The notes: generated by a model from the sequence alone, not told the origin. A stretch of DNA of 37,849 bases from an uncultured bacterium (GCA_964001155.1 CAXFCD010000052.1:1-37849); one strand, 5' to 3'. Positions 1 through 37,544 are shown, counted from the stretch's first letter. Numbers and translations are program-made.

Positions 1-2727
1 ATTGAAACGGATGGTATTGGTGGAATCCACCTTTGGTATGGTGATGTGAGCAGTTCTTTGGTCATCATGAATGATATGCAAGCCATGTCGAAAATTCCAA
101 TCATATTTGATGCTGATATGGAATATGGACTTCATCAGCGTTTTCCCTCGGGAACAGATTTACCTCCTTTCATGGCAATAGCAGCGACGGATAATCCTGA
201 TAATGCTTATTTAGCAGGGAAAATAGTTGCCGAAGAAGCCCGAGCAGCGGGAATTCAATGGAATTTATCTCCTGTAGTTGATGTCAATAATAACTCGGAA
301 AACCCAATCATAAATACGCGTTCATTTGGCGAACACCCCGATTTAGTCACTAATTTTGCAATTCCTTACATGAGAGGATTACAAGAAAATGGTGTATTGG
401 CAACAGCCAAACATTTTCCGGGACATGGTGATACTGAAACAGATTCTCATTCTTCTCTTGCCATGATTCCCAGTGATTCCGGTCGCCTATGGTCTGTGGA
501 AATTCCACCTTTTCAAGCAATGGCTGATGCCGGTGTAGATGCCATCATGGTGGCCCATGTCCATGCGCCGGATTATCAACCGGAATCAGATTCACCTGCT
601 TCAATAGACCCTTTTTGGATTCAATCTATTCTCAAACAAAAAATAGGATTTGATGGCGTTGTCATTACAGACGCAATGGGCATGGGTGGCGTGACAAAAA
701 ATTATTCCGACGCTTACGCCCTAATCGAAACAATCAATGCAGGCAGCGATGTAATTATTCAAAATTATAATTTGAAGGGTTCTATTGATGTTGTTGAAAA
801 AGCAGTCCACCAAGGTCTTATCCCAATCAATAGAATAAATGAATCTGCTTTGAAAATGCTTCAAATAAAAATGAAAGCCGGTTTAAATCAATCAAAATTC
901 ATCACTTCTGATTATGCACGACAAACCATTGGTAAAAAAGAAAATCGGACCGTGGCGAATCAAATGGCAACAGAAGCAATCACATGCGTAAAAAATGAAT
1001 TGAATTTGATTCCCTTGGTGAATAATGAGAAAAATCCTTTATTCGTGATTGATCTCTTTGATTCAAGGAATAACCATTCTCATTCATTAGTCTCCAAGGA
1101 TATTAAAAAATTAGGGACAGCGGTAAAGATAATACAGATTGATGAATCCGATTCAAGGAATTATTTGAATACTGTCTTAGAAGATATTCCCGTAAACAGT
1201 CCTATTCTCATTAATGCATTTGTAAACCCAAAAGCATGGAAGGATCAGATTAATTTATCAAATAAATTATCTGATTTTGTTCGTTCTCTTGTCAAAAAAA
1301 CTGATAATATTATTTTAGCAAGTTTAGGGACACCTTACCTCATTCGTGAATTTCCTGAAATCCCGGTTTACATTTGCGCTTATAAGGATAATACAGTCAT
1401 GCAAAATGCATTGGTCAAAGCACTTCTTGGAAAAACTAAAATATCAGGGAAACTACCTGTTTCAATTCCCGGTGTAGCAATGATTGGTGAAGGAATTGTA
1501 TTAGATAAACAAAGAACAGTAAAACAAAAAAAAGCACATAAACCGAGTACTGAAATTATTCAGGTATTGCCGACTGAACTTGGTGTTAAAACAAATAAAC
1601 TGAATCAGTTATTAGAAGAGTCAGTCCGAGATAGGGCTTGGCCCGGTGGTGTGCTATTAGCAGCCAAGAATGGTAAAATATTTTCGAAAAAAGCATTTGG
1701 ATTTCATACTTATGACCAAAACAGAGACGTCAGAACCAGTGATATCTTTGACTTGGCATCCATTACAAAAGTCATAGCCACCACATCATCTATCATGAAA
1801 TTGGTTGAAAGTGGCAAAGTTGATCTTGATGATCCTGTGGTAAAACATTTGCCTGAATTTTCCGGAAAACAAAAGGCAGCAGGTTCTCAAAAATCGATAA
1901 TAACAATCCGGCATTTATTAACCCACACAGGCGGATTGCCGTCATTCAAACAATACTACAAAATGAATGGATCTATTGAGTCGAAACTGGATAGTGTGTT
2001 TAATACAGCACCGGAATCTGGCTTGGGAGAGAAAACGATTTATTCGGATATAGGACTGATTGTATTGGGGAAATTGATTGAAAAAGTAAGCGATGTTACT
2101 TTGGACCAATTTGCAGATTCGCTCATTTTTCAGCCCCTAGGTATGACATCAACTTTTTTTAATCCGCCTCAAGAAAAGTTTCATCGCATCGTTCCCACAG
2201 AAATTTCTGAAGACTATCGAGCAGGATTGATTCAAGGGGAAGCCCATGATGAAAACGCTCACTGCATTGGGGGTGTTTCGGGTCATGCCGGTCTTTTTTC
2301 TACCGTTCGCGACTTGGCGCGATTTTCCCAAATGATGTTGAATAAAGGGCTCTACGGATGGACAAGAATATTTAGACAAGAAACAATCGAGTTATTTACA
2401 CAGCGCGCCAATATCATTGAGGGGAGTTCACGATGTTTGGGCTGGGACAGCCCGGATGGAGAAGCATCCGGCGGAATATATTTAAGTGATTCCAGTTATG
2501 GACATAATGGATTCACAGGCACCTCTTTGTGGATTGATCCTGAGAATCAGGTTATTGTTATTCTACTCACAAATGCAGTTCATCCCAATCGATCAGCAAA
2601 AAACCCAAAATATTTTGACTGGCGGCAACGTATCCATTCTGCGGTCTATGAATCTCTGGGATTTACAGAGCAAAACCCAAATTTGAAATTGAAATCCAGG
2701 TGGAAATATATTTCGGGTGACGAATAA
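1..2727 (+). CDS. nagZ: Fusion protein: GH3 beta-N-acetylhexosaminidase (NagZ-like) N-terminal part plus beta-lactamase-fold serine hydrolase (AmpH/EstB-like) C-terminal part; 5' end cut by the window edge
   Basis: Frame 1 is open from nt 1 (IETDGIGGIHLWYG... precedes the first ATG at 46). GH3 signature KHFPGHGDTETDSH is present. The C-terminal half has SxxK (DLASITKV), YSD and GHNGFTGTS motifs typical of class-C-like serine hydrolases. Confidence 0.85.
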   Translation: METDGIGGIHLWYGDVSSSLVIMNDMQAMSKIPIIFDADMEYGLHQRFPSGTDLPPFMAIAATDNPDNAYLAGKIVAEEARAAGIQWNLSPVVDVNNNSENPIINTRSFGEHPDLVTNFAIPYMRGLQENGVLATAKHFPGHGDTETDSHSSLAMIPSDSGRLWSVEIPPFQAMADAGVDAIMVAHVHAPDYQPESDSPASIDPFWIQSILKQKIGFDGVVITDAMGMGGVTKNYSDAYALIETINAGSDVIIQNYNLKGSIDVVEKAVHQGLIPINRINESALKMLQIKMKAGLNQSKFITSDYARQTIGKKENRTVANQMATEAITCVKNELNLIPLVNNEKNPLFVIDLFDSRNNHSHSLVSKDIKKLGTAVKIIQIDESDSRNYLNTVLEDIPVNSPILINAFVNPKAWKDQINLSNKLSDFVRSLVKKTDNIILASLGTPYLIREFPEIPVYICAYKDNTVMQNALVKALLGKTKISGKLPVSIPGVAMIGEGIVLDKQRTVKQKKAHKPSTEIIQVLPTELGVKTNKLNQLLEESVRDRAWPGGVLLAAKNGKIFSKKAFGFHTYDQNRDVRTSDIFDLASITKVIATTSSIMKLVESGKVDLDDPVVKHLPEFSGKQKAAGSQKSIITIRHLLTHTGGLPSFKQYYKMNGSIESKLDSVFNTAPESGLGEKTIYSDIGLIVLGKLIEKVSDVTLDQFADSLIFQPLGMTSTFFNPPQEKFHRIVPTEISEDYRAGLIQGEAHDENAHCIGGVSGHAGLFSTVRDLARFSQMMLNKGLYGWTRIFRQETIELFTQRANIIEGSSRCLGWDSPDGEASGGIYLSDSSYGHNGFTGTSLWIDPENQVIVILLTNAVHPNRSAKNPKYFDWRQRIHSAVYESLGFTEQNPNLKLKSRWKYISGDE

Positions 2728-13758: not shown

Positions 13759-14949
13759 TTAATTTGCCAGATCATATCTATGAATAGTATTATCTAATTG
13801 GATAAAAAAGGTATCCGAATTATCAATTTTTGAAAATTTCACATTTTTATACGATTTGTTGGAAATTTCATGAGTAGTGAGAGTCTCCTTTAAAAAATTA
13901 TATTGGAGAAGTTTTATATTGTCGTAAAATAATCCATTTGGGGATGGTGATAGTGATTTTGATGTGAGAATTAATAACAAATTATCATAATTCATACACT
14001 CCATAGGGAATACTTCATCATCAAATTTTATTTTAATCGGATCCATTATTTTTGATGGATCATAAATTGTTACACCATCCTTATAAATAAGAGCTAACTG
14101 CTTGTTTATCCAGATGACTTTTCGAGGCATTACTGCCAAAGGCATAGACATAATTTTATTCAAATTATTAAGGTCGAATAAAGTTAAATGAGGAATTGGA
14201 TTTATTCTTTCGGTGGGATTGGTTGTCCCAACAACAGAAACTATATTTTTTGGTGAAATGGATGTGAAATATGGTTGAACCATGTCAAAAGTGACGCTTG
14301 GTTTAGATTCTAATGATTCCTTTAATTGAAAAAATGTTACATTATTTCTGGAATTTAGTTTTGCTGTTTTCATTCCTAAGAAATATAGTTGGCTATTGTG
14401 AGATTGGCTGAGGATGACCTTCTCTGTAGTCCAGGGACTTTCACCGAAAAGATTAAATTTGCCTATCAATTCTCCATTCACATTAAAGACTGAATATGAT
14501 TGTGATTCAGCCCATAGAATAAATATTTGTTCATTAAAAATGATGATATTTGGAATCCCTGAATCATAAGGAATTTCGATTTGCCAAGGGGAATTTCTAA
14601 TTGCAAAATTTGAAATGGGTTGGAATGTTAAAATAGCCTGCTCTTTATTTTTTGGAATTATTAACGAAACAACCATTAATAGATCTGGTAATTTGTTTGC
14701 TAATACCTTTATAATCCTTCCTTTGGAGATTTCATAGATTGAATTACCATTTTTGAAAACATGTTGTTCATTATAGCTTAGAATAGCTGAATCACTTACA
14801 GATAGCACTGTTGAAGAATTTTGAAGTGTATATGATTGAACTAAAAGAGCATTGTCCTGACTGCTGATAAAACTAGGCAAAAAAAATAAAAGAAAAAGGG
14901 TGGTGGGGAATTTCATTTTATGTAGGCTCACGTTATTCTTTCCGTGCAT
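13759..14949 (-). CDS. Hypothetical secreted protein (no family recognised); the true start may be the MKF... codon at 14916
   Basis: A long ORF with no competing ORF. It has a hydrophobic N-terminal signal (MKFPTTLFLLFFLPSFISSQ) and lies 3 nt upstream of the M23 gene on the same strand. It is visibly more AT-rich than its neighbours. Confidence 0.5.
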   Translation of the reverse strand: MHGKNNVSLHKMKFPTTLFLLFFLPSFISSQDNALLVQSYTLQNSSTVLSVSDSAILSYNEQHVFKNGNSIYEISKGRIIKVLANKLPDLLMVVSLIIPKNKEQAILTFQPISNFAIRNSPWQIEIPYDSGIPNIIIFNEQIFILWAESQSYSVFNVNGELIGKFNLFGESPWTTEKVILSQSHNSQLYFLGMKTAKLNSRNNVTFFQLKESLESKPSVTFDMVQPYFTSISPKNIVSVVGTTNPTERINPIPHLTLFDLNNLNKIMSMPLAVMPRKVIWINKQLALIYKDGVTIYDPSKIMDPIKIKFDDEVFPMECMNYDNLLLILTSKSLSPSPNGLFYDNIKLLQYNFLKETLTTHEISNKSYKNVKFSKIDNSDTFFIQLDNTIHRYDLAN

Positions 14950-19578: not shown

Positions 19579-22500
19579 TTGAAAATCACACAATACAACA
19601 ATTCCAAATCAATTTTATATTTAGTTGGATTAGTGTTAATACTTTCAAATCCAGTATATGCATTTTTACCATTAAATAAAAAAAATAATGATCAAGAACC
19701 ACCGCGAAAAGATTGGACAAATACTCAATATACGAATTATTACAAATGGCGGGAGAATACTCTTCAGAGACAAATGGATGAGGAAAATGACGATCAAATT
19801 CTTAGAAGACAGAAAGCTATACTTAATGGCAACAAGATAACGTCGGAAATTTGGAATTACGGTAGTATCTCAAGCCCAGGAAACCGAACCACTGATATTG
19901 TATGGGAAAGTTTGGGATATGGGTATGAATTTGGGCCTTTTATTTGTGCAGAGGTGGAAGTCGAGCCTCAAAGTCACTTAGATGCTTATATTAAAACTGA
20001 CGAGAATGGAAATCCGGTTACCAATGAAAATGGAGATACTGTTTGGGTAGCAAGAGTGATTAGTGATGGTTTGGTTTCCTTAGGAGGTGAAGTTTCACCT
20101 GATGGAAAGGATATTTGGGGCTGGCAACCTCTCGCTTATAATTCCGAAAATGTACCTTATGCAGATACTGAGAGCAATTATATCCCAACCTCAAACGATT
20201 TTGATCGGGATGGTGACGGTAAACCAGACAGTTGGCCGGAAGGATGGTACAATGAAATCCTAAAAGAGTTTAAGTGGCCAGGCGCATTACGCCAAGGTGC
20301 ATCCAACTCTGATATGGAATCCTTTTTTGTTGTAGACGATCGCACGAATAAAGAATTTGAATATTACCCTTTTCCAGAAGATTCCACGCGAAAAGGATTA
20401 GGGATTGAAATTGAATGCCGTTATTACCAATGGTCAAATCCACTGGCCGAAGATATTATATTCCTCATTTATAAGGTAACAAATAAAAGTCAAAAAGACT
20501 TGAATAAAGTCCTTTTCGGTATGTGGGGGGATCCCCACATTGGTGGTCCATCTAATTGGCAGGATGATTTATCATATTTTGACCGTGATATTAACATGGT
20601 TTATTGCTGGGATGAAGATGGTCACAGCGATATTGCCGGACGTGAACCGGGATACTTCGGTTATAAATTTCTTGAAAGTCCTGGTGATCCTTATGATGGA
20701 TTAGATAATGACTCTGATGGAATGGTCGACGAAAGCAGGAGTGATGGCATAGACAATGACGGTGATTGGGATCCGGATAAACATGATGTTGGAGTAGATG
20801 GTATACCAAATACAGGTGATACCGGTGAAGGAGACGGTGCCCCAACTGCTGGTGATCAATACGACATTAGAGAACCGGGTGAACCAAACTTTGAATGGAC
20901 TGATTTAGATGAAGCAGATATGGTGGGTCTAACAGGATTTGCATCACCGGCTTTCGGTGGAAATAACTCTATTTCTAATGATCATTATGTTTTCGAAAAC
21001 TTTTTAACACCAGGCGTTTTTGATTCTGCCAATGCAAACTCAGCAGGGGATTATATTTTTATTTACAGTTCAGGACCAATTGATCTTCCTGCGGGTGAAA
21101 CTCGCCGATTTTCCATTGCATTGTTAGTTGGACAAAATTATGAAGACTTAACACTGAATGCGGTGACTGCACAAAGTATTTATGAGCGGAATTATCAATT
21201 TGCAAAACCACCTGAAAAACCAAATGTTACCGTTGTCCCTGGTGATGAGAAAGTCACACTTTACTGGGATGATATTGCAGAATCTTCCATTGATCCAATT
21301 TCAGAGAAAAATGATTTTGAAGGCTATGTTATTTACCGAAGTACAGATCCCCAATTTTTAGATCAGCAAACAATAACTGATGCCTATGGATCTAACTTTT
21401 TGTTTACTCCGCTCGAGCAGGTTGGAGGAGCACCAGCAAAATTTGATCTGATAAATGACTACAGCGGTTTGAGCAGTATACCATACACGGGTCATGGAAT
21501 TCCATATAATTTGGGAAGCAATACCGGCATCCAACATTCTTTTGTGGACTCAAATAATGTAATTAATGGACAAGTCTATTATTACACTGTAGTTTCCTAT
21601 GATCATGGAGATGACAGTCTTCAGATCGCACCTGCTGAATGCTCAAAACTGATCACTTTGAATCCGGAATCAAATGAGTTATTTCTCGATGTAAATACAG
21701 TCCAAATTATACCAAGAGTGCCTGCAGCAGGTTATACGGAAGGTAGCTTAACCAGCGCAGGGATATTTCATGAAGAAGGTATTGGAACAGGAAATGTGAG
21801 AATTGAGATTATTGATCCAATGAAAATAGAAGACAGTGATACCTTCCGCGTTACATTTAAAGAATCACCAACAAGATATTCGGTTGAGGATACAAAACCA
21901 GTTGATGAAATTTTTATAGCTAATAGTGGCAAATTCATTGGACTGACATTTAGGAATATTGTAAAAGAATCCTTTAATTTGAAAAGCATGGATGGCACTG
22001 TTGTTTATATTGATAGTGTCGACTATGAGTTGGATTCAGATTATGGTCGAGTTCGCGCCATTCCTGATTCTTCCGGAGGCGGTTTAGAAGATGGCGTACA
22101 ATATCGCGTAACCTATACTTATTTATCAATTAAAGACAGTGAAATGTTAAATAATGAAGAATCAAATCCTGTTTTTGATGGATTGAAAATTTTTATAGAA
22201 GATCAACCATTAGATATTGATGAGAGTAAAACAGGGTGGAATTTATATAGTCCAACAAATTATACTACAGTCGTAGGAGTATTTTCACAAGGAGGAAACG
22301 CATTTCCAGCGGATTATGAAGTTCGGTTTTCATCATCAATTGTTGATACAGGTTCTTTTGCTGGAATATTGACACCCTTTGAAATTTATAAAACCACCAT
22401 GGGTATGATCCCTGAAAAGCAACGGTTTGCAATCATAAAGAAGCAACCCAATGAAAGTAATGATACATGGGATAGTCATGATGAAATTGTTTTATTTGAA

Positions 22501-23001
22501 GGTGAAGGATTCAGTTCACCTACTTGGATGATAAAATTTCTACAACCACCGGCGGATACACCCGTTATTCCTACTGAAGGTGATATTTATCAAATTGCTA
22601 CAACTCGTCCCTTCACTACTGATGATATTTTTACATTTGTTACAACAGCATCAAAAATTGATGAAAATCAAGGAATTAATGATTTAGAAAAAATCTCTGT
22701 TGTTCCTAATCCTTATGTCGTAACAAATACCCTCGAAAGATTAGATAGGCAAAATCCAAGGGACAGAGGTCCCCGGCGAGTATATTTTAACCATTTACCT
22801 GCTGAATGTACTATACGGATTTATACGATTACAGGTGAATTGGTAAAATCATTAGTGCACAGTTCAACAATTGATGATGGCAAAGAATACTGGGATCTCA
22901 CAACAAATGACAATTTTCCAATTGCATATGGAGTTTATATTTTTCATGTTGATGCAGGAGAAATAGGTGAGAAAATCGGGCGATTTGCAGTTATTAAATA
23001 A
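19579..23001 (+). CDS. Large (1140 aa) secreted protein of unknown family with a thrombospondin-type-3-like Ca-binding Asp cluster, an FN3-like domain and a divergent T9SS/FlgD-Ig-like C-terminal domain
   Basis: TTG start 24 nt after the receptor stop. Signal peptide present. DGLDNDSDGMVDESRSDGIDNDGDWDPDKHDVGVDGIPNTGDTGEGDG cluster. FN3-like PEKPNVTVVPGDEKVTLYWDD...GYVIYRS. The C-terminus is VVPNPYVV...IRIYTITGELV...GVYIFHV...RFAVIK. Confidence 0.7.
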   Translation: MKITQYNNSKSILYLVGLVLILSNPVYAFLPLNKKNNDQEPPRKDWTNTQYTNYYKWRENTLQRQMDEENDDQILRRQKAILNGNKITSEIWNYGSISSPGNRTTDIVWESLGYGYEFGPFICAEVEVEPQSHLDAYIKTDENGNPVTNENGDTVWVARVISDGLVSLGGEVSPDGKDIWGWQPLAYNSENVPYADTESNYIPTSNDFDRDGDGKPDSWPEGWYNEILKEFKWPGALRQGASNSDMESFFVVDDRTNKEFEYYPFPEDSTRKGLGIEIECRYYQWSNPLAEDIIFLIYKVTNKSQKDLNKVLFGMWGDPHIGGPSNWQDDLSYFDRDINMVYCWDEDGHSDIAGREPGYFGYKFLESPGDPYDGLDNDSDGMVDESRSDGIDNDGDWDPDKHDVGVDGIPNTGDTGEGDGAPTAGDQYDIREPGEPNFEWTDLDEADMVGLTGFASPAFGGNNSISNDHYVFENFLTPGVFDSANANSAGDYIFIYSSGPIDLPAGETRRFSIALLVGQNYEDLTLNAVTAQSIYERNYQFAKPPEKPNVTVVPGDEKVTLYWDDIAESSIDPISEKNDFEGYVIYRSTDPQFLDQQTITDAYGSNFLFTPLEQVGGAPAKFDLINDYSGLSSIPYTGHGIPYNLGSNTGIQHSFVDSNNVINGQVYYYTVVSYDHGDDSLQIAPAECSKLITLNPESNELFLDVNTVQIIPRVPAAGYTEGSLTSAGIFHEEGIGTGNVRIEIIDPMKIEDSDTFRVTFKESPTRYSVEDTKPVDEIFIANSGKFIGLTFRNIVKESFNLKSMDGTVVYIDSVDYELDSDYGRVRAIPDSSGGGLEDGVQYRVTYTYLSIKDSEMLNNEESNPVFDGLKIFIEDQPLDIDESKTGWNLYSPTNYTTVVGVFSQGGNAFPADYEVRFSSSIVDTGSFAGILTPFEIYKTTMGMIPEKQRFAIIKKQPNESNDTWDSHDEIVLFEGEGFSSPTWMIKFLQPPADTPVIPTEGDIYQIATTRPFTTDDIFTFVTTASKIDENQGINDLEKISVVPNPYVVTNTLERLDRQNPRDRGPRRVYFNHLPAECTIRIYTITGELVKSLVHSSTIDDGKEYWDLTTNDNFPIAYGVYIFHVDAGEIGEKIGRFAVIK
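22693..22998 (+). other. Divergent T9SS-like C-terminal domain of the 1140-aa protein
   Basis: ISVVPNPYVV, then an insertion (TNTLERLDRQNPRDRGPRR), then VYFNHLPAECTIRIYTITGELVKSL...YWDLTTNDNFPIAYGVYIFHVDAG...GRFAVIK. It has the same strand pattern as the other five tails but with an extra charged insert. Confidence 0.45.
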
Positions 23002-23023
23002 GAATATTTTATTGACTAGAATA

Positions 23024-24076
23024 ATGAAAAAAATTATCCATAAGACCAATATAGCGGTGTTGCTTATTTTTATTTTATTCCAATTATGTTGGGTATATGG
23101 CCAATTGGACGATTCACAAACAATAACAAAATCGGGAACAACAGCAGCACAATTTTTGAAAATAGGTATAGGGGCTCGTGGAACGGCGATGGGCGGTGCC
23201 TTTGCAGCGATCGATGGTGATATAAGTTCCATGTACTGGAATGCTGCGGGTATTGCAAGCATGAACAGGTTAGAGACAATGTTTGTTGATGGCGATTGGC
23301 TTGCAGGTGTTAGACTCCAATATCTTGGCTTTTCAATTCCAATACATAGAATTGGTGTTCTGGGATTAAGTGTCACAAATCTTTCAGTTCCAGAAGATAA
23401 AGTACGTACAATTTCTGAACCAGAGGGTACAGGTGAATATTGGGGTGCTCGGGATTTAGCTGCGAATCTAAGTTTTGCCAGAAAATTATCCGATAAATTC
23501 AGTATTGGAGGAAATATAAAATATATTCAACAAACAATTTGGCATGCCAGTGCCAGTACATATGCTGCGGATTTAGGAGCGCTATTTGAAACACCTTTTA
23601 ACGGAATTAGACTAGGTGCTTCTATTAATAATTACGGCGGTAAAATGAAGTTAGAGGGTAGAGACCAAAAAATCAGTGTAGATCCAGATCCTTTAAATCA
23701 GGGTAATGTAGAGTTCATTAATGCGAATCTGGAAACAGACCAATTTCCAATTCCTTTAATTTTCCGAGTTGGGCTATCGGGTGAATTAATTAATAAACAA
23801 AATTTAAGATTATCCTACGCTATTGATGCGTTGCACCCTAATGATAATTCTGAGTATGTGAATTTGGGGATGGAGACAGTTTTTAATAACCTTGTGTCAA
23901 TTCGTGCAGGATATCCTTCATTATACAAGGAAGAATCGATTGAAGGTCCAACCTTTGGAGCAGGGTTGAATTATAGGATTTGGCGTACAGCAACAATATT
24001 GAAAGTCGATTATTCCTTTGCAGACTTTGGTCCATTAGGAGATGTGAAAAGAATATCTATAGGATTTAATTTTTAA
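23024..24076 (+). CDS. PorV/PorQ-family (UPF0164/FadL-like) T9SS-associated outer-membrane beta-barrel
   Basis: Family signature TTAAQFLKIGIGARGTAMGGAFAAIDGDISSMYWNAAGIA follows a signal peptide. The protein is beta-rich and ends ...ISIGFNF. Start chosen at the ATG at 23024 (MKKIIHK...), 22 nt after the upstream stop, rather than the ORF-track start at 22967. Confidence 0.75.
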   Translation: MKKIIHKTNIAVLLIFILFQLCWVYGQLDDSQTITKSGTTAAQFLKIGIGARGTAMGGAFAAIDGDISSMYWNAAGIASMNRLETMFVDGDWLAGVRLQYLGFSIPIHRIGVLGLSVTNLSVPEDKVRTISEPEGTGEYWGARDLAANLSFARKLSDKFSIGGNIKYIQQTIWHASASTYAADLGALFETPFNGIRLGASINNYGGKMKLEGRDQKISVDPDPLNQGNVEFINANLETDQFPIPLIFRVGLSGELINKQNLRLSYAIDALHPNDNSEYVNLGMETVFNNLVSIRAGYPSLYKEESIEGPTFGAGLNYRIWRTATILKVDYSFADFGPLGDVKRISIGFNF

Positions 24077-34064: not shown

Positions 34065-34706
34065 ATGAAAACAAATTATCATTTACCTTGGGATAAGGAA
34101 GAGATTGCCAACACAATCACTCACGGATTTGGCGTGATTGCCAGTTCTATTGGTCTCGGTTTTTTATTGTATTTCGCCATTATGAAAGGGACCATTTGGG
34201 AACAGGTCAGTTTTGGCATTTTTGGATCAACCATGTTGGTTGTTTTTCTCGCCTCCACAATATATCATTCAATTCGACACCCAAGATTGAAACGGATATT
34301 TCAAACGATTGATCAGTCTGCGATATTTTTGCTTATTGCAGGATCTTATGCACCGTTTTGTTTAGTCAGTATGCGAGGCGTTTGGGGTTGGTCTATTTTA
34401 ATTGCAGTTTGGCTACTTGCGATCGGTGGCATTACGCTCAAACTTTTTTATCGAGATAAAGTCGTTAAACCATTTGTGATTTTGTATGTAGCTATGGGTT
34501 GGTTATGCATTATTGCCATAAAAGAAATGTTGGAGAAAATTCCTGAATTTTCATTACTCTTTATTGTCATCGGTGGCGGCTTTTACATGACAGGAATTAT
34601 TTTTTATCTTTGGGAAAGATTACCCTATAGCCATGCTATCTGGCATCTGTTTGTTCTGGGTGGATGTGCCAGTCATTATGTGGCTGTAATTGATCTCATT
34701 TTATGA
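34065..34706 (+). CDS. Hemolysin-III / PAQR family membrane protein
   Basis: 213 aa with 7 TM segments. EEIANTITHGFG, STIYHS, DQSAIFLLIAGSYAP and HAIWHLFVLGG are the conserved PAQR His/Asp motifs. Confidence 0.85.
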   Translation: MKTNYHLPWDKEEIANTITHGFGVIASSIGLGFLLYFAIMKGTIWEQVSFGIFGSTMLVVFLASTIYHSIRHPRLKRIFQTIDQSAIFLLIAGSYAPFCLVSMRGVWGWSILIAVWLLAIGGITLKLFYRDKVVKPFVILYVAMGWLCIIAIKEMLEKIPEFSLLFIVIGGGFYMTGIIFYLWERLPYSHAIWHLFVLGGCASHYVAVIDLIL

Positions 34707-35203
34707 CAAACTTCATTCTTGCAGGATTAATCATGGCACCTTTATTCGAAAAATTTCCAGAGATTGGAAAACCTGCTCCCCACTTTTCATTAGAAGACCA
34801 AGATGGGAAAACCCATTCACTGGAGGAGTATAAAGGGAAGAAACTTGTGGTTTATTTTTTCCCAAAAGCAGACACACCAGGATGAGTGAAACAAGCATGC
34901 GGATTCCGGGATGAATCTCAAAAGTATGAAGAATTAAATATCGTTGTTTTGGGGATTAGTTATGATTCAAAAGAATCACTGAAATCCTTTCGAGAAAAAT
35001 ATAGAATCCCATTTAATTTTCTTTCAGATTCAGAAAAAGTGGTTGGGAAAAAATATGGAGTTAATAAATTTCTTTTCCCTTCGAGAAAAACATTTTTAAT
35101 TGATGAAGATGGGATACTTATTCGAATATTTCAAGACGTAAATTTGAATACACATCCTGAAGATGTTGTGAAAGCATTTAATGAAGTTTTAATTGGAGAA
35201 TAA
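34703..35203 (+). CDS. bcp: Selenocysteine-containing thiol peroxidase (Bcp/PrxQ-type peroxiredoxin); in-frame TGA at 34883-34885 read as Sec
   Basis: The two track ORFs (34703-34885 and 34886-35203) are in the same frame, separated only by TGA. Joined, they read VVYFFPKADTPG-U-VKQACGFRD, the Bcp active site (PKDxTPGCTxxACxFRD) with TGA exactly at the peroxidatic Cys. The rest (GISYDS...FREKYRIPFNFLSD...YGV...RKTFLIDEDG) is a complete thioredoxin-fold peroxiredoxin. Confidence 0.8.
34896..34928 (+). promoter_or_regulatory. Candidate bacterial SECIS hairpin for the bcp UGA
   Basis: It starts 10 nt after the UGA. Lower stem CAUGC/GUAUG (34896-34900 / 34924-34928, one G-U). Upper stem GGAUUC/GAAUCU (34901-34906 / 34913-34918, one G-U). 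3' bulge CAAAA. Apical loop CGGGAU. Confidence 0.5.
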
Positions 35204-35204
35204 C

Positions 35205-35435
35205 ATGAAAGTTTCTATTGAATATTGCGCCATGTGAAACTACCTGCCAAGAGCTTCCGGTCTGGAAGAAGAACTCAAATCAAAATTCCCGGGAATTGAC
35301 ACAAAACTCATTTCAAGTGGTGGCGGTGTTTATGAAGTGACACTGGATGGAAATCTCATTTTTTCCAAAAAAGCCTTAGATCGATTTCCGGAAGCTGGTG
35401 AAATAGAAAAATTGATCAAGGACAATTCCAACTGA
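35205..35435 (+). CDS. selW: SelW-like (Rdx family, SelW/SelT/SelH) selenoprotein, 76 aa, with a CxxU redox motif; not present in the ORF track
   Basis: The ATG at 35205 lies 1 nt after the bcp stop and has a GGAGA Shine-Dalgarno. Translation: MKVSIEYCAM-U-NYLPRASGLEEELKSKFPGIDTKLISSGGGVYEVTLDGNLIFSKKALDRFPEAGEIEKLIKDNSN. The TGA at 35235-35237 sits in the CxxU position. IEYCxxU, GGGxxEV, DGxLIxSK and RFPE are the Rdx-family hallmarks. Confidence 0.85.
35251..35276 (+). promoter_or_regulatory. Candidate bacterial SECIS hairpin for the selW-like UGA
   Basis: It starts 13 nt after the UGA. Lower stem GAG/CUC (35251-35253 / 35274-35276). Upper stem CUUCC/GGAAG (35254-35258 / 35264-35268). 3' bulge AAGAA. 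Apical loop GGUCU. Confidence 0.55.
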
Positions 35436-35436
35436 T

Positions 35437-36198
35437 TTGATTTTTAGCGTTCATTATAAAGGTCAGGATTACACACTAGATTCTGACCGAGGGATTGATT
35501 TGTCAATTCCAAATAATTTTGATGGAAAAAATCCGTCTTTTTATGGTGCAAAGTCTCCAGAAATAAAACCGGTTTTATCCGGTGATTTTATTGGTGATGT
35601 AAATAAGGGTGGGAGTTGTAATGTACCGGTAGCCACAGTTGATATTCATTGTTCCGGTACACACACCGAGTGCGAAGGTCATATCAACAATTCAGGATTG
35701 AGAATATCTGATGTTTGTCCGAGAGGATTTCTATTTTCTCAAATTATTTCAATTGAACCAGTTTTAAAATCTGATACAAATGAATCATATCATGTAGATT
35801 GTGAAAATGAATTAGTGATTTCATCCGAGTCAATTCGTAATAATCTTCATGAGGATATTGAAGCACTCATTCTTCGTACGTTGCCAAACACGGATGAAAA
35901 ATTGAGTCGAAATTATGATGAAAACCCAGCCCCTTTTTTGACAAATGATGCGATTGATTTTATATCAAAAAAAGGGATCCAACATGTATTGGTGGATGTG
36001 CCTTCAATTGATAGAGCCAATGATGTTGGAAAGTTAGGAAATCATCATCGATTTTTTGAATATGGGAAAACAATTTCCGAATTACTTTATATTCCAAACT
36101 CTATTCAAGATGGACTTGGATTTCTTCAAATCCAAATCCCCAATTGGGGATTAGATGCTGCCCCAAGTCGCCCCATTTTTTATTCTGTTATATTATAG
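35437..36198 (+). CDS. Putative cyclase / kynurenine-formamidase-family metal hydrolase (divergent)
   Basis: TTG start 1 nt after the selW-like stop. DIHCSGTHTECEGH resembles the cyclase-family HxGTHxDxPxH metal motif. HVLVDVPSIDRAN and HHRFFEYG resemble the downstream conserved blocks. Confidence 0.55.
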   Translation: MIFSVHYKGQDYTLDSDRGIDLSIPNNFDGKNPSFYGAKSPEIKPVLSGDFIGDVNKGGSCNVPVATVDIHCSGTHTECEGHINNSGLRISDVCPRGFLFSQIISIEPVLKSDTNESYHVDCENELVISSESIRNNLHEDIEALILRTLPNTDEKLSRNYDENPAPFLTNDAIDFISKKGIQHVLVDVPSIDRANDVGKLGNHHRFFEYGKTISELLYIPNSIQDGLGFLQIQIPNWGLDAAPSRPIFYSVIL

Positions 36199-36266: not shown

Positions 36267-37544
36267 ATGAGCGAGCAAGTAAAAAGTATAATCACATGTG
36301 ATCTTGATGGAAAAGTGGAGACATTTAGCGATGGTGCAGAGAGTCTTTTTGGATATACTCAAGAAGAAGTGATCGCTAAAATGAGAGTGAGTGATTTCAG
36401 CAATGGACAGGTTGTATTGGGCCACGTTGTGGGCTGGCTGGCTGAAGCAGTAAAAAATGGCGCTTGGGAAGGCAATACGGTATTTTTGCACAAGGACGGT
36501 AGTGAATTACCTTGCCATATCAAAATTACACCCACAAAAGGAAAAGATGGCGTGCATATTGGCTATTGCGGTGTAACCACACCATTGCAAAATAAGACCG
36601 CGGACGAAGTCCGGCCAAAGATCAGTCTGATGACTAAGATCTTTACCTGGTTGGTAATTATGCGTTTACCCTTTTTAACTGCTACATTTGTCCCCATTTT
36701 TGTTGGTGCGGCTGTAGCAAAACTGGCTGGATTTCCTGTGGATTGGGGTTGGTTGGGTTTAACTCTGTTGGGTGGATCTCTTTTGCATATTGGAACCAAT
36801 ACGGCCAACGATTATTTTGATCACACCAGTGGTACAGATGAAGCAAATTATAATTATATGGTTCCATTCTCAGGTGGCAGCCGCAGTATTCAAATGGGCC
36901 TCATTACAGCAAAAGGAATGCTAACAGTGGCTATTGTGTCCTTTGTACTGAGTGCGGTTGTAGGTATTCCACTTATACAAAAAGCAGGGATACCAGTCTT
37001 GTGGTTGGGCTTGATTGGTTTTCTGTCCGGTTTATTCTATACAGCCCCACCTTTTCGTTTTGCATCTAGGAAAGGATTAGGTGAATTACTTATTGGACTC
37101 AATTTTGGCCCACTAATGGTTGCAGGCAGTGCTCTTATACAAACAGGAAAATTATTGCCGGACGCATTCCTAGCTGGAATTCCTATTGGTCTTCTGGTAG
37201 CTGCGATCGTATATGTAAACGAATTTCCGGATCATGATGGTGATAAAGCTACAGGGAAGAATACCTTGATTGTTGTCTTCGGCCCTGAAAAGGCTAGGAT
37301 TGGTTATGTCTTGTTGGTAGCAGGTGCCTTTATCAGTATCGTGGTCATGGCTTTGAATGGAACTTTTCCCATGCTGACCATGATCGCACTTGTGGCATCT
37401 TATTTTGGTGTGAGAGCAATCCAAATACTTTATAGATACTATGACGACCGCCTGTTGCAACCTGCAAATGCCGGTACGATCAATATGCACTTTATTACAG
37501 GAGTTCTATTTTGCATTGGAATCTGGCTGGGAGCACCTGTTTAA
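36267..37544 (+). CDS. N-terminal PAS-like domain fused to a UbiA-family (MenA-like) polyprenyltransferase
   Basis: Residues 1-~110 (ITCDLDGKVETFSDGAESLFGYTQEEVIAKM...WEGNTVFLHKDGSELPCHIKITPTKGKDGVHIGYCGV) look like a PAS fold. The remainder is polytopic, with the two UbiA Asp-rich motifs NTANDYFDHTSGTD and YVNEFPDHDGDKATGKNTL. Confidence 0.8.
   Translation: MSEQVKSIITCDLDGKVETFSDGAESLFGYTQEEVIAKMRVSDFSNGQVVLGHVVGWLAEAVKNGAWEGNTVFLHKDGSELPCHIKITPTKGKDGVHIGYCGVTTPLQNKTADEVRPKISLMTKIFTWLVIMRLPFLTATFVPIFVGAAVAKLAGFPVDWGWLGLTLLGGSLLHIGTNTANDYFDHTSGTDEANYNYMVPFSGGSRSIQMGLITAKGMLTVAIVSFVLSAVVGIPLIQKAGIPVLWLGLIGFLSGLFYTAPPFRFASRKGLGELLIGLNFGPLMVAGSALIQTGKLLPDAFLAGIPIGLLVAAIVYVNEFPDHDGDKATGKNTLIVVFGPEKARIGYVLLVAGAFISIVVMALNGTFPMLTMIALVASYFGVRAIQILYRYYDDRLLQPANAGTINMHFITGVLFCIGIWLGAPV

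Follow-up and report, generated by a model that had tools for sequence, protein, structure and literature searches.

Selenoproteins of the SelW-like type, which carry a CxxU motif and come with a bacterial SECIS element, are the most abundant selenoproteins of the Sargasso Sea and GOS data (PMC1088965; PMC2398784). In the GOS data 427 Sec forms are found beside 56 Cys forms (PMC2398784), and Cys homologues of SelW-like proteins were noted to be scarce in organisms that use Sec (Zhang et al., 2006, PMC1794560). The bacterial SelW-like proteins described in the literature (Zhang, Fomenko & Gladyshev, 2005; Zhang & Gladyshev, 2008) have a small Rdx domain with an N-terminal CxxU motif, and the SECIS element lies directly downstream of the UGA codon, with a G in its small apical loop; they are of marine origin, and their Sec forms far exceed the Cys forms. 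All these properties are shared by the locus analyzed here, and nothing of substance differs. Furthermore, "ten Prx/SelW sequences" were reported from GOS reads, representing neighbouring selenoprotein genes of one small phylogenetic group (PMC2398784, 2008).

The locus is part of a window of 37,849 nt (the whole stretch of DNA that was analyzed) from an uncultured bacterium (GCA_964001155.1, CAXFCD010000052.1:1-37849), in which a bcp gene and a putative cyclase-family gene are separated by an apparent gap of 233 nt (35204-35436). The original prediction held that this gap is not intergenic and contains the gene for a SelW-like selenoprotein (here termed selW), and its coordinates (ATG at 35205, GGAGA upstream of it, TGA as codon 11, end at 35435 and the length of the gap) were all confirmed by reading the sequence. 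The selW coding sequence (35205..35435, plus strand) comprises 76 codons including Sec11 and ends with the stop codon TGA at 35433-35435; it translates to MKVSIEYCAM*NYLPRASGLEEELKSKFPGIDTKLISSGGGVYEVTLDGNLIFSKKALDRFPEAGEIEKLIKDNSN*, with the internal TGA (35235-35237) as codon 11. The start codon is located one base beyond the bcp stop codon TAA (35201-35203) and is preceded, with a spacer of 5 nt, by a GGAGA element (35195..35199, plus strand) that presumably acts as a Shine-Dalgarno sequence. Purine-rich boxes are present at this site in several relatives, not in all. Downstream, the TTG start codon of the cyclase-family gene (35437) is found 1 nt past the selW stop codon, and public gene calls use the identical start. 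The redox motif Cys8-Ala-Met-Sec11 (CxxU) is encoded at 35226..35237 on the plus strand, with the TGA as its last codon.

The gene had been predicted to be missed by the ORF track owing to its TGA, and indeed the mechanical ORF list contains only a 32-aa fragment in the selW frame (35337-35435). In public gene calls made with code 11 for this contig (TARA scaffold_235, 106 kb, and three other assemblies), nothing is annotated in the selW interval, and bcp appears as two pieces of 60 + 105 aa.

The protein was compared with the Pfam Rdx profile (PF10262, gathering score 22.6), which represents thioredoxin-like proteins of the SelW/SelT/SelH/SelV type, after replacing U by C. It matches model positions 1-74 of 74 with 78.6 bits (E 4.3e-22), which bears out the view that the gap is not intergenic. 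Database homologues with a W at the Sec position match PF10262 too; thus, the family match is independent of the U to C substitution. A sequence search of the PDB yielded eight solved Rdx proteins (2fa8, 3dex, 2oka, 2obk, 2ojl, 2p0g, 2ljk and 2npb). The best solved relative is Atu0228 (2fa8) with an E value of 1.6e-10, and mouse SelW (2npb) was found with an E value of 5e-5; 2p0g is the "selenoprotein W-related protein" of V. cholerae and 2ljk is MIEN1. Of the others, 3dex is SAV_2001, and 2oka, 2obk and 2ojl are the proteins from PA, P. fluorescens and B. parapertussis, respectively. In the CTQC motif of 2fa8, 3dex and 2oka the second Cys aligns with the TGA of selW, and further Cys homologues place their second Cys there as well, in agreement with the predicted location of Sec at the second redox position.

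An AlphaFold2 model was made of the database homologue P0001, which is 96% identical, using 45 aligned relatives. The model has a pLDDT of 90.4 and the topology b1(2-8)-a1(14-27)-b2-b3-b4-a2, and it locates Cys8 and the UGA-encoded residue 11 at the b1/a1 junction. In a Foldseek comparison of this model with the PDB, the top 23 matches were all Rdx/SelW structures with TM scores up to 0.90 (0.89 for 2fa8; 0.85-0.90 for 2fa8, 2obk, 2oka, 3dex and 2p0g), and thioredoxins and glutaredoxin scored much weaker. Since the profile match, the CxxC/CxxU motif between b1 and a1 and the thioredoxin-like beta-alpha-beta-beta-beta-alpha fold were all found, the protein can be assigned to the Rdx family. The full-length PF10262 match and the fold of SelW-related proteins thereby uphold the SelW-like identity proposed at the outset. 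As read from the sequence, the apparent gap is a real, unannotated gene of 76 codons, predicted to encode a SelW-like (Rdx) selenocysteine-containing redox protein.

Bacterial Rdx proteins of the Cys type (2fa8, 3dex, 2oka, 2obk, 2p0g, 2ojl) resemble the selW product over the whole domain (25-35% identity, TM 0.84-0.90, rmsd 0.9-2.0 A) and have the redox motif in the same place. They differ in length, with about 100-108 residues compared to 76, and in carrying CxxC (CTQC) instead of CxxU, and because CxxC replaces CxxU they need no SECIS element. Mouse SelW (2npb) and MIEN1 (2ljk) likewise belong to the Rdx family and have the thioredoxin-like fold. Mouse SelW shares with the selW product a CxxU motif at the equivalent position; however, it is less similar overall (E 5e-5, TM 0.67).

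The codon aligned with the TGA of selW is TGA in 75/75 related copies examined and TGY in none. It is TGA in 35/35 genome loci, which were obtained by scanning one genome per GTDB species, in the loci L001-L014 and in 25 marine metagenome loci. The 35 genome loci include Marinimicrobia, Desulfobulbales, Gemmatimonadales, Acidobacteriota, Ignavibacteria, Actinomarina, Obscuribacterales, Anaerolineae, Planctomycetia, Binataceae and more, and the best of them is a Candidatus Marinimicrobia MAG with 83% identity; across phyla the protein identity ranges from 40 to 83%. This result fits the low number of Cys homologues reported earlier (PMC1794560). A sequencing or assembly error could have turned TGT or TGC into TGA in the gene for an ordinary CxxC Rdx protein: one base change gives a Cys codon, and Cys forms of the family exist (PMC2398784). 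However, a near-identical locus (L060, bcp 99% identical) has TGA too, as do many diverged loci that stem from different studies; several TARA, JGI and other ENA datasets yielded independent assemblies of the parent contig; and 0/75 related copies contain TGY. Such an error is thus extremely improbable.

The frame after the TGA is open and conserved in 35/35 genome loci. A dN/dS analysis (Nei-Gojobori) of codons 12-76 against three relatives gave values of 0.05-0.16, with dS near saturation, showing strong purifying selection on the frame beyond the TGA. Conservation of the read-through frame in relatives, as expected from the original prediction, was thus observed both in the dN/dS values and in the 75 copies. 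These data also bear on the view that the TGA is a genuine stop, the gene being a decaying pseudogene or a 10-residue leader peptide and the Rdx similarity a remnant. It would explain that standard gene callers terminate at the TGA, and it would agree with the low thermodynamic stability of the hairpin found downstream (see below). A remnant would, however, not be expected to remain free of frameshifts and extra stops in 75/75 copies from many phyla and to show such a low dN/dS beyond the TGA, and the Pfam and structural matches cover the C-terminal two thirds of the protein. We therefore regard a genuine stop as very improbable.

A third possibility is that the TGA is read as Trp or another standard amino acid, either under genetic code table 4 or 25 or by efficient near-cognate read-through, resulting in a CxxW product. 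The gene has 238 relatives in the protein database, and 120/120 of those listed (70-96% identity) have W at position 11, some of them also reading the terminal TGA as W. Two of these entries, P0017 and P0002, were checked at the DNA level; in both the codon is TGA, and a translation with table 11 differs from the stored protein. In addition, P0001 and other entries have C-terminal tails that read through the TGA stop codon (...NSNWFDF; ...SSSWVDNWNSP), and tails such as ...NSNWFDF overrun the conserved end of the protein and extend into the start of the next gene. Because the two entries checked at the DNA level carry TGA, the W entries are read as code-4 miscalls, and they look like table-4 mistranslations. 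The adjacent Prx is also stored in a code-4 translation in public metagenome protein collections.

In the window itself, TGA terminates five of 29 genes, Trp is specified by TGG (189 codons), and translation with table 11 leaves long ORFs unbroken. The 29 genes contain only two in-frame TGAs, one in selW and one in bcp, and both are located at the catalytic Cys positions of redox families. TGA is normally a stop codon here. Code 4 was ruled out for the window by stop-codon and Trp-codon usage and by the DNA of the loci, and a CxxW product is accordingly as improbable as a genuine stop.

The reading of codon 11 as selenocysteine calls for a SECIS element, and a covarying SECIS-like hairpin was found shortly downstream of the UGA. 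In the window this hairpin lies within the coding sequence at 35253..35269 (plus strand), with the stem 35254-35258/35264-35268 (CUUCC/GGAAG) and the loop GGUCU (35259-35263). The hairpin lies 17-19 nt after the UGA; in the family alignment, the start of its stem is 15-16 nt past the UGA (16 nt in the window). The window hairpin CUUCC-GGUCU-GGAAG has 5 bp plus a possible G.U pair and a folding energy of -5.8 kcal/mol; it is no stabler than shuffled sequences (z between about -0.1 and +1.4 for the different stretches folded). Folding of the sequence after each UGA, that of selW and that of bcp, gave energies no better than those of dinucleotide shuffles. Rfam yielded no match at gathering thresholds in the whole window and only chance-level E values of 1-10 around both UGAs. 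Since single-sequence energies neither support nor exclude a SECIS element, a comparative analysis was used, and it is solely this comparative evidence that carries the SECIS assignment proposed for selW.

For this analysis, 40 distinct SelW-like sequences were aligned without gaps from the UGA to 39 nt beyond it. The hairpin has a fixed register in this alignment, with stem columns 19-24/30-35 and loop columns 25-29. The loop is GGUCU in 17, AGUUU in 13 and AGUAU in 4 sequences; G26 is invariant and U27 is present in at least 90%. In the stem, 86% of the cells pair compared to 69% in column shuffles (0/500 shuffles reached this value), and the covariation score is 0.50 compared to 0.175 in shuffles (0/500) and 0.195 or less in controls with slid partners. 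Compensatory changes were found at three pairs, exceeding both types of control, and the same helix was predicted independently by RNAalifold. Pair 21-33 combines the third base of the invariant Ala17 codon, a four-fold-degenerate position, with the third base of codon 21; it occurs as UA in 16, CG in 15, GC in 4, AU in 3 and GU in 1 sequences, and is paired in 97.5% compared to 49% expected (0/20000 shuffles). Because both bases are at third-codon positions, the pairing is not explicable by coupling at the protein level. Residues 18 and 21-22 in helix alpha-1 also covary in this alignment (S..EE, T..AA, V..AA, I..M, D..S). The SECIS appears to constrain the protein, as these alpha-1 residues change jointly and the RNA stem stays paired. 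Taken as a whole, the selW hairpin fits a bacterial SECIS element. A conserved and covarying hairpin after the UGA would be needless under a reassigned code, which is a further point against a CxxW product.

This element can be compared with the SECIS of E. coli fdhF, whose loop pentamer, read from NC_000913.3, is GGUCU. In both genes the hairpin is located immediately 3' of the UGA (UGA140 in fdhF), within the ORF and with GGUCU at its apex. In the SelW-like family the loop is one codon further from the UGA (G26/U27 compared to G23/U24), the conserved stem has only 5-7 bp, and no counterpart of the bulged U17 of fdhF was identified. G23 and U24 of the fdhF hairpin are the SelB contacts. In eukaryotes, insertion of selenocysteine depends on a SECIS in the 3' UTR with SBP2 and eEFSec; the selW element, in contrast, follows the UGA directly and is part of the coding region.

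The upstream bcp gene (34703..35203, plus strand), encoding a bcp/PrxQ peroxiredoxin, starts with ATG at 34703 or more likely at 34733 and is probably a selenoprotein gene as well, a point absent from the original prediction. Its in-frame TGA (34883-34885) takes the place of the codon for the peroxidatic Cys (FFPKADTPG-U-VKQA-C), and the resolving Cys is kept five residues beyond U. With U replaced by C the product matches AhpC-TSA with an E value of 3e-37. The AhpC-TSA domain, the U in the TPGC motif and the resolving Cys are those of the Sec form of PrxQ/BCP (the TxxU "Prx" selenoprotein family), to which the product is assigned on this basis. The TGA is present in 26/26 close metagenome relatives (70-99% identity) and likewise in L001-L015. 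In the distant relatives this position is occupied by Cys (54/54), and none of them has a SelW gene within 1.5 kb.

A candidate SECIS hairpin is also found in bcp (34901..34918, plus strand; GGAUUC-CGGGAU-GAAUCU). Its 5' arm covers nt 19-24 counted from the U of UGA, which is the register of the selW hairpin. The 18 nt are invariant across relatives and the flanking synonymous sites vary; in the L001 group a G-C pair is changed to G.U and an A-U pair to G.U. Only a few distinct sequences vary inside the hairpin, which is too little variation for a covariation analysis.

Of the 26 close relatives with Sec-bcp, 25 have SelW(U) next, the two UGAs being 352-353 nt apart, and the contig of the 26th ends too early. 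The Prx(U)-SelW(U) pair is fixed in a Marinimicrobia (SAR406) clade, and the GOS Prx/SelW group almost certainly represents this same clade. Here, the pair is given a genomic context (hlyIII-bcp-selW-cyclase) and an assignment to SAR406, which the read-level analysis of 2008 could not provide.

The gene upstream of bcp, in the window and in relatives, encodes an hlyIII-family membrane protein (34065..34706, plus strand; Pfam HlyIII E 6e-38), and its stop codon overlaps the first candidate start of bcp (ATGA). The putative cyclase-family gene (35437..36198, plus strand; Pfam Cyclase E 1e-8) follows selW in relatives too. Spacers in the block hlyIII-bcp-selW-cyclase are -4, 1 and 1 nt, and the order is kept in relatives, with the cyclase gene last. 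Promoter-like sites are no commoner in the window than in shuffled sequences, and its nine terminator-like sites (3.2 in shuffles) are all in coding regions, none at an operon boundary.

The window has 37.7% G+C and encodes T9SS sorting-domain proteins, a TonB-dependent receptor and a large peptidoglycan-recycling cluster; on account of this content and the best genome hit it was placed in Marinimicrobia/SAR406. The cluster comprises NamZ, an AmiA-like amidase, an LD-carboxypeptidase, an S13 D-Ala-D-Ala carboxypeptidase, GH18, Amidase_2 and transporters, and several of its proteins have T9SS sorting tails. It also includes a fusion of GH3 (NagZ-like) with a class-C-type beta-lactamase/PBP (46-2727, plus strand), which is found at its full length of 975 aa in L054 (7053-9980). 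Two ORFs, one of 1140 aa (19579-23001, plus strand) and one of 396 aa (13759-14949, minus strand), have no Pfam match at E <= 1e-5; the former is located directly after the gene for the TonB-dependent receptor and overlaps the ORF 22967-24076 by 35 nt. Downstream of the cyclase gene, in relatives too, a 425-aa protein with an N-terminal PAS domain and a UbiA-family prenyltransferase membrane domain is encoded (36267-37544, plus strand); the joining of a sensor domain to a prenyltransferase seems to be uncommon. The PAS-UbiA gene is followed, about 0.5 kb past the right end of the window on the parent contig (L050, 11763-16728), by a mutagenesis cassette consisting of LexA, a Y-family polymerase (IMS) and a DnaE2-like protein (PHP/DNA_pol3_alpha). 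Assemblies differ in the spacer between the UbiA gene and lexA, which contains a PDDEXK_3 gene or small ORFs as inserts.

To see which genes accompany SelW-like genes across phyla, the ORFs immediately upstream and downstream were compared with Pfam at 34 loci, and no recurrent neighbour was found outside the clade. FecR occurs at five of these loci, OmpA at three and other families at one or two each, with no redox partner among them. In other phyla the SelW-like genes are without a Prx neighbour.

No gene for the Sec machinery (selA, selB, selD and tRNA-Sec) turned up in the window, and none in about 55 kb of the parent contig or beside the 35 loci. The window lacks any tRNA recognized by ARAGORN, which also reported no tRNA-Sec for the 35 genome loci, and SelA, SelB and SelD were absent from Pfam scans of the window ORFs and from the gene lists of the contig flanks. 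SelD has been reported in three SAR406 single-cell genomes (PMC5029168, Table 1; Peng et al., 2016). These genomes, which are incomplete, were classed as "orphan SelD", with no SelA/SelB and no selenoproteins found (PMC5029168). The Sec genes selW and bcp suggest that the Marinimicrobia clade does decode Sec, and the "orphan SelD" label of SAR406 probably reflects incomplete genomes and missed UGA genes.

We conclude that 35205-35435 very probably encodes a SelW-like thiol/selenol oxidoreductase into which Sec11 is inserted by means of a SECIS within the coding sequence, and which has a redox role beside a Sec-PrxQ. Codon 11 would be read as selenocysteine, the second redox residue of a CxxC-type motif, and the hairpin inside the selW coding sequence would direct the read-through of the UGA. 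By analogy to E. coli fdhF, SelB.GTP.Sec-tRNA(Sec) would bind the hairpin loop and thus be brought to the ribosome that has paused at the UGA. In the protein, Cys8 and Sec11 would cycle between the selenol/thiol and the selenenylsulfide forms. The frame, the family and fold, the conservation of the TGA, the purifying selection and the covariation of the hairpin come from the analysis itself; that Sec is actually inserted and SelB bound is inferred, as are the chemistry of the redox pair and the partner of the selW product. Because selW directly follows the Sec-PrxQ gene in a packed block, peroxide or redox defence is its most likely role, and the adjacent Sec-PrxQ may be a redox partner.

A more specific proposal is that Prx(U) and SelW(U) form a peroxide relay of two selenoproteins, in which SelW reduces the selenenylsulfide of Sec-PrxQ. 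The fixed position of SelW(U), 352-353 nt after the close Sec-Prx, and the lack of SelW in relatives with Cys-Prx are compatible with this relay. Since SelW-like genes in other phyla have no Prx neighbour, the link between Prx and SelW may be clade-specific or coincidental, and we consider the relay unlikely on the present evidence, as a tentative idea. We know of no biochemical function for any bacterial SelW-like protein; if true, the relay would be the first defined biochemical function for the ocean's most abundant selenoprotein family and would by the same token offer a lead for eukaryotic SelW.

The identification of selW is an annotation fix and not a discovery, as the family, its motif, the SECIS type and the Prx/SelW adjacency were described in 2005-2008. 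What is added, besides the corrected annotation, is that public collections contain the family mistranslated with table 4 and that the Prx(U)-SelW(U) operon can be assigned to SAR406/Marinimicrobia. Gene calling with table 11 misses selW and splits bcp, and where metagenome pipelines resort to table 4 instead, the catalytic selenocysteine is stored as a false Trp, sometimes together with a read-through tail. Estimates of selenium use in SAR406/Marinimicrobia, as well as the mining of these proteins, would be misled by such entries.
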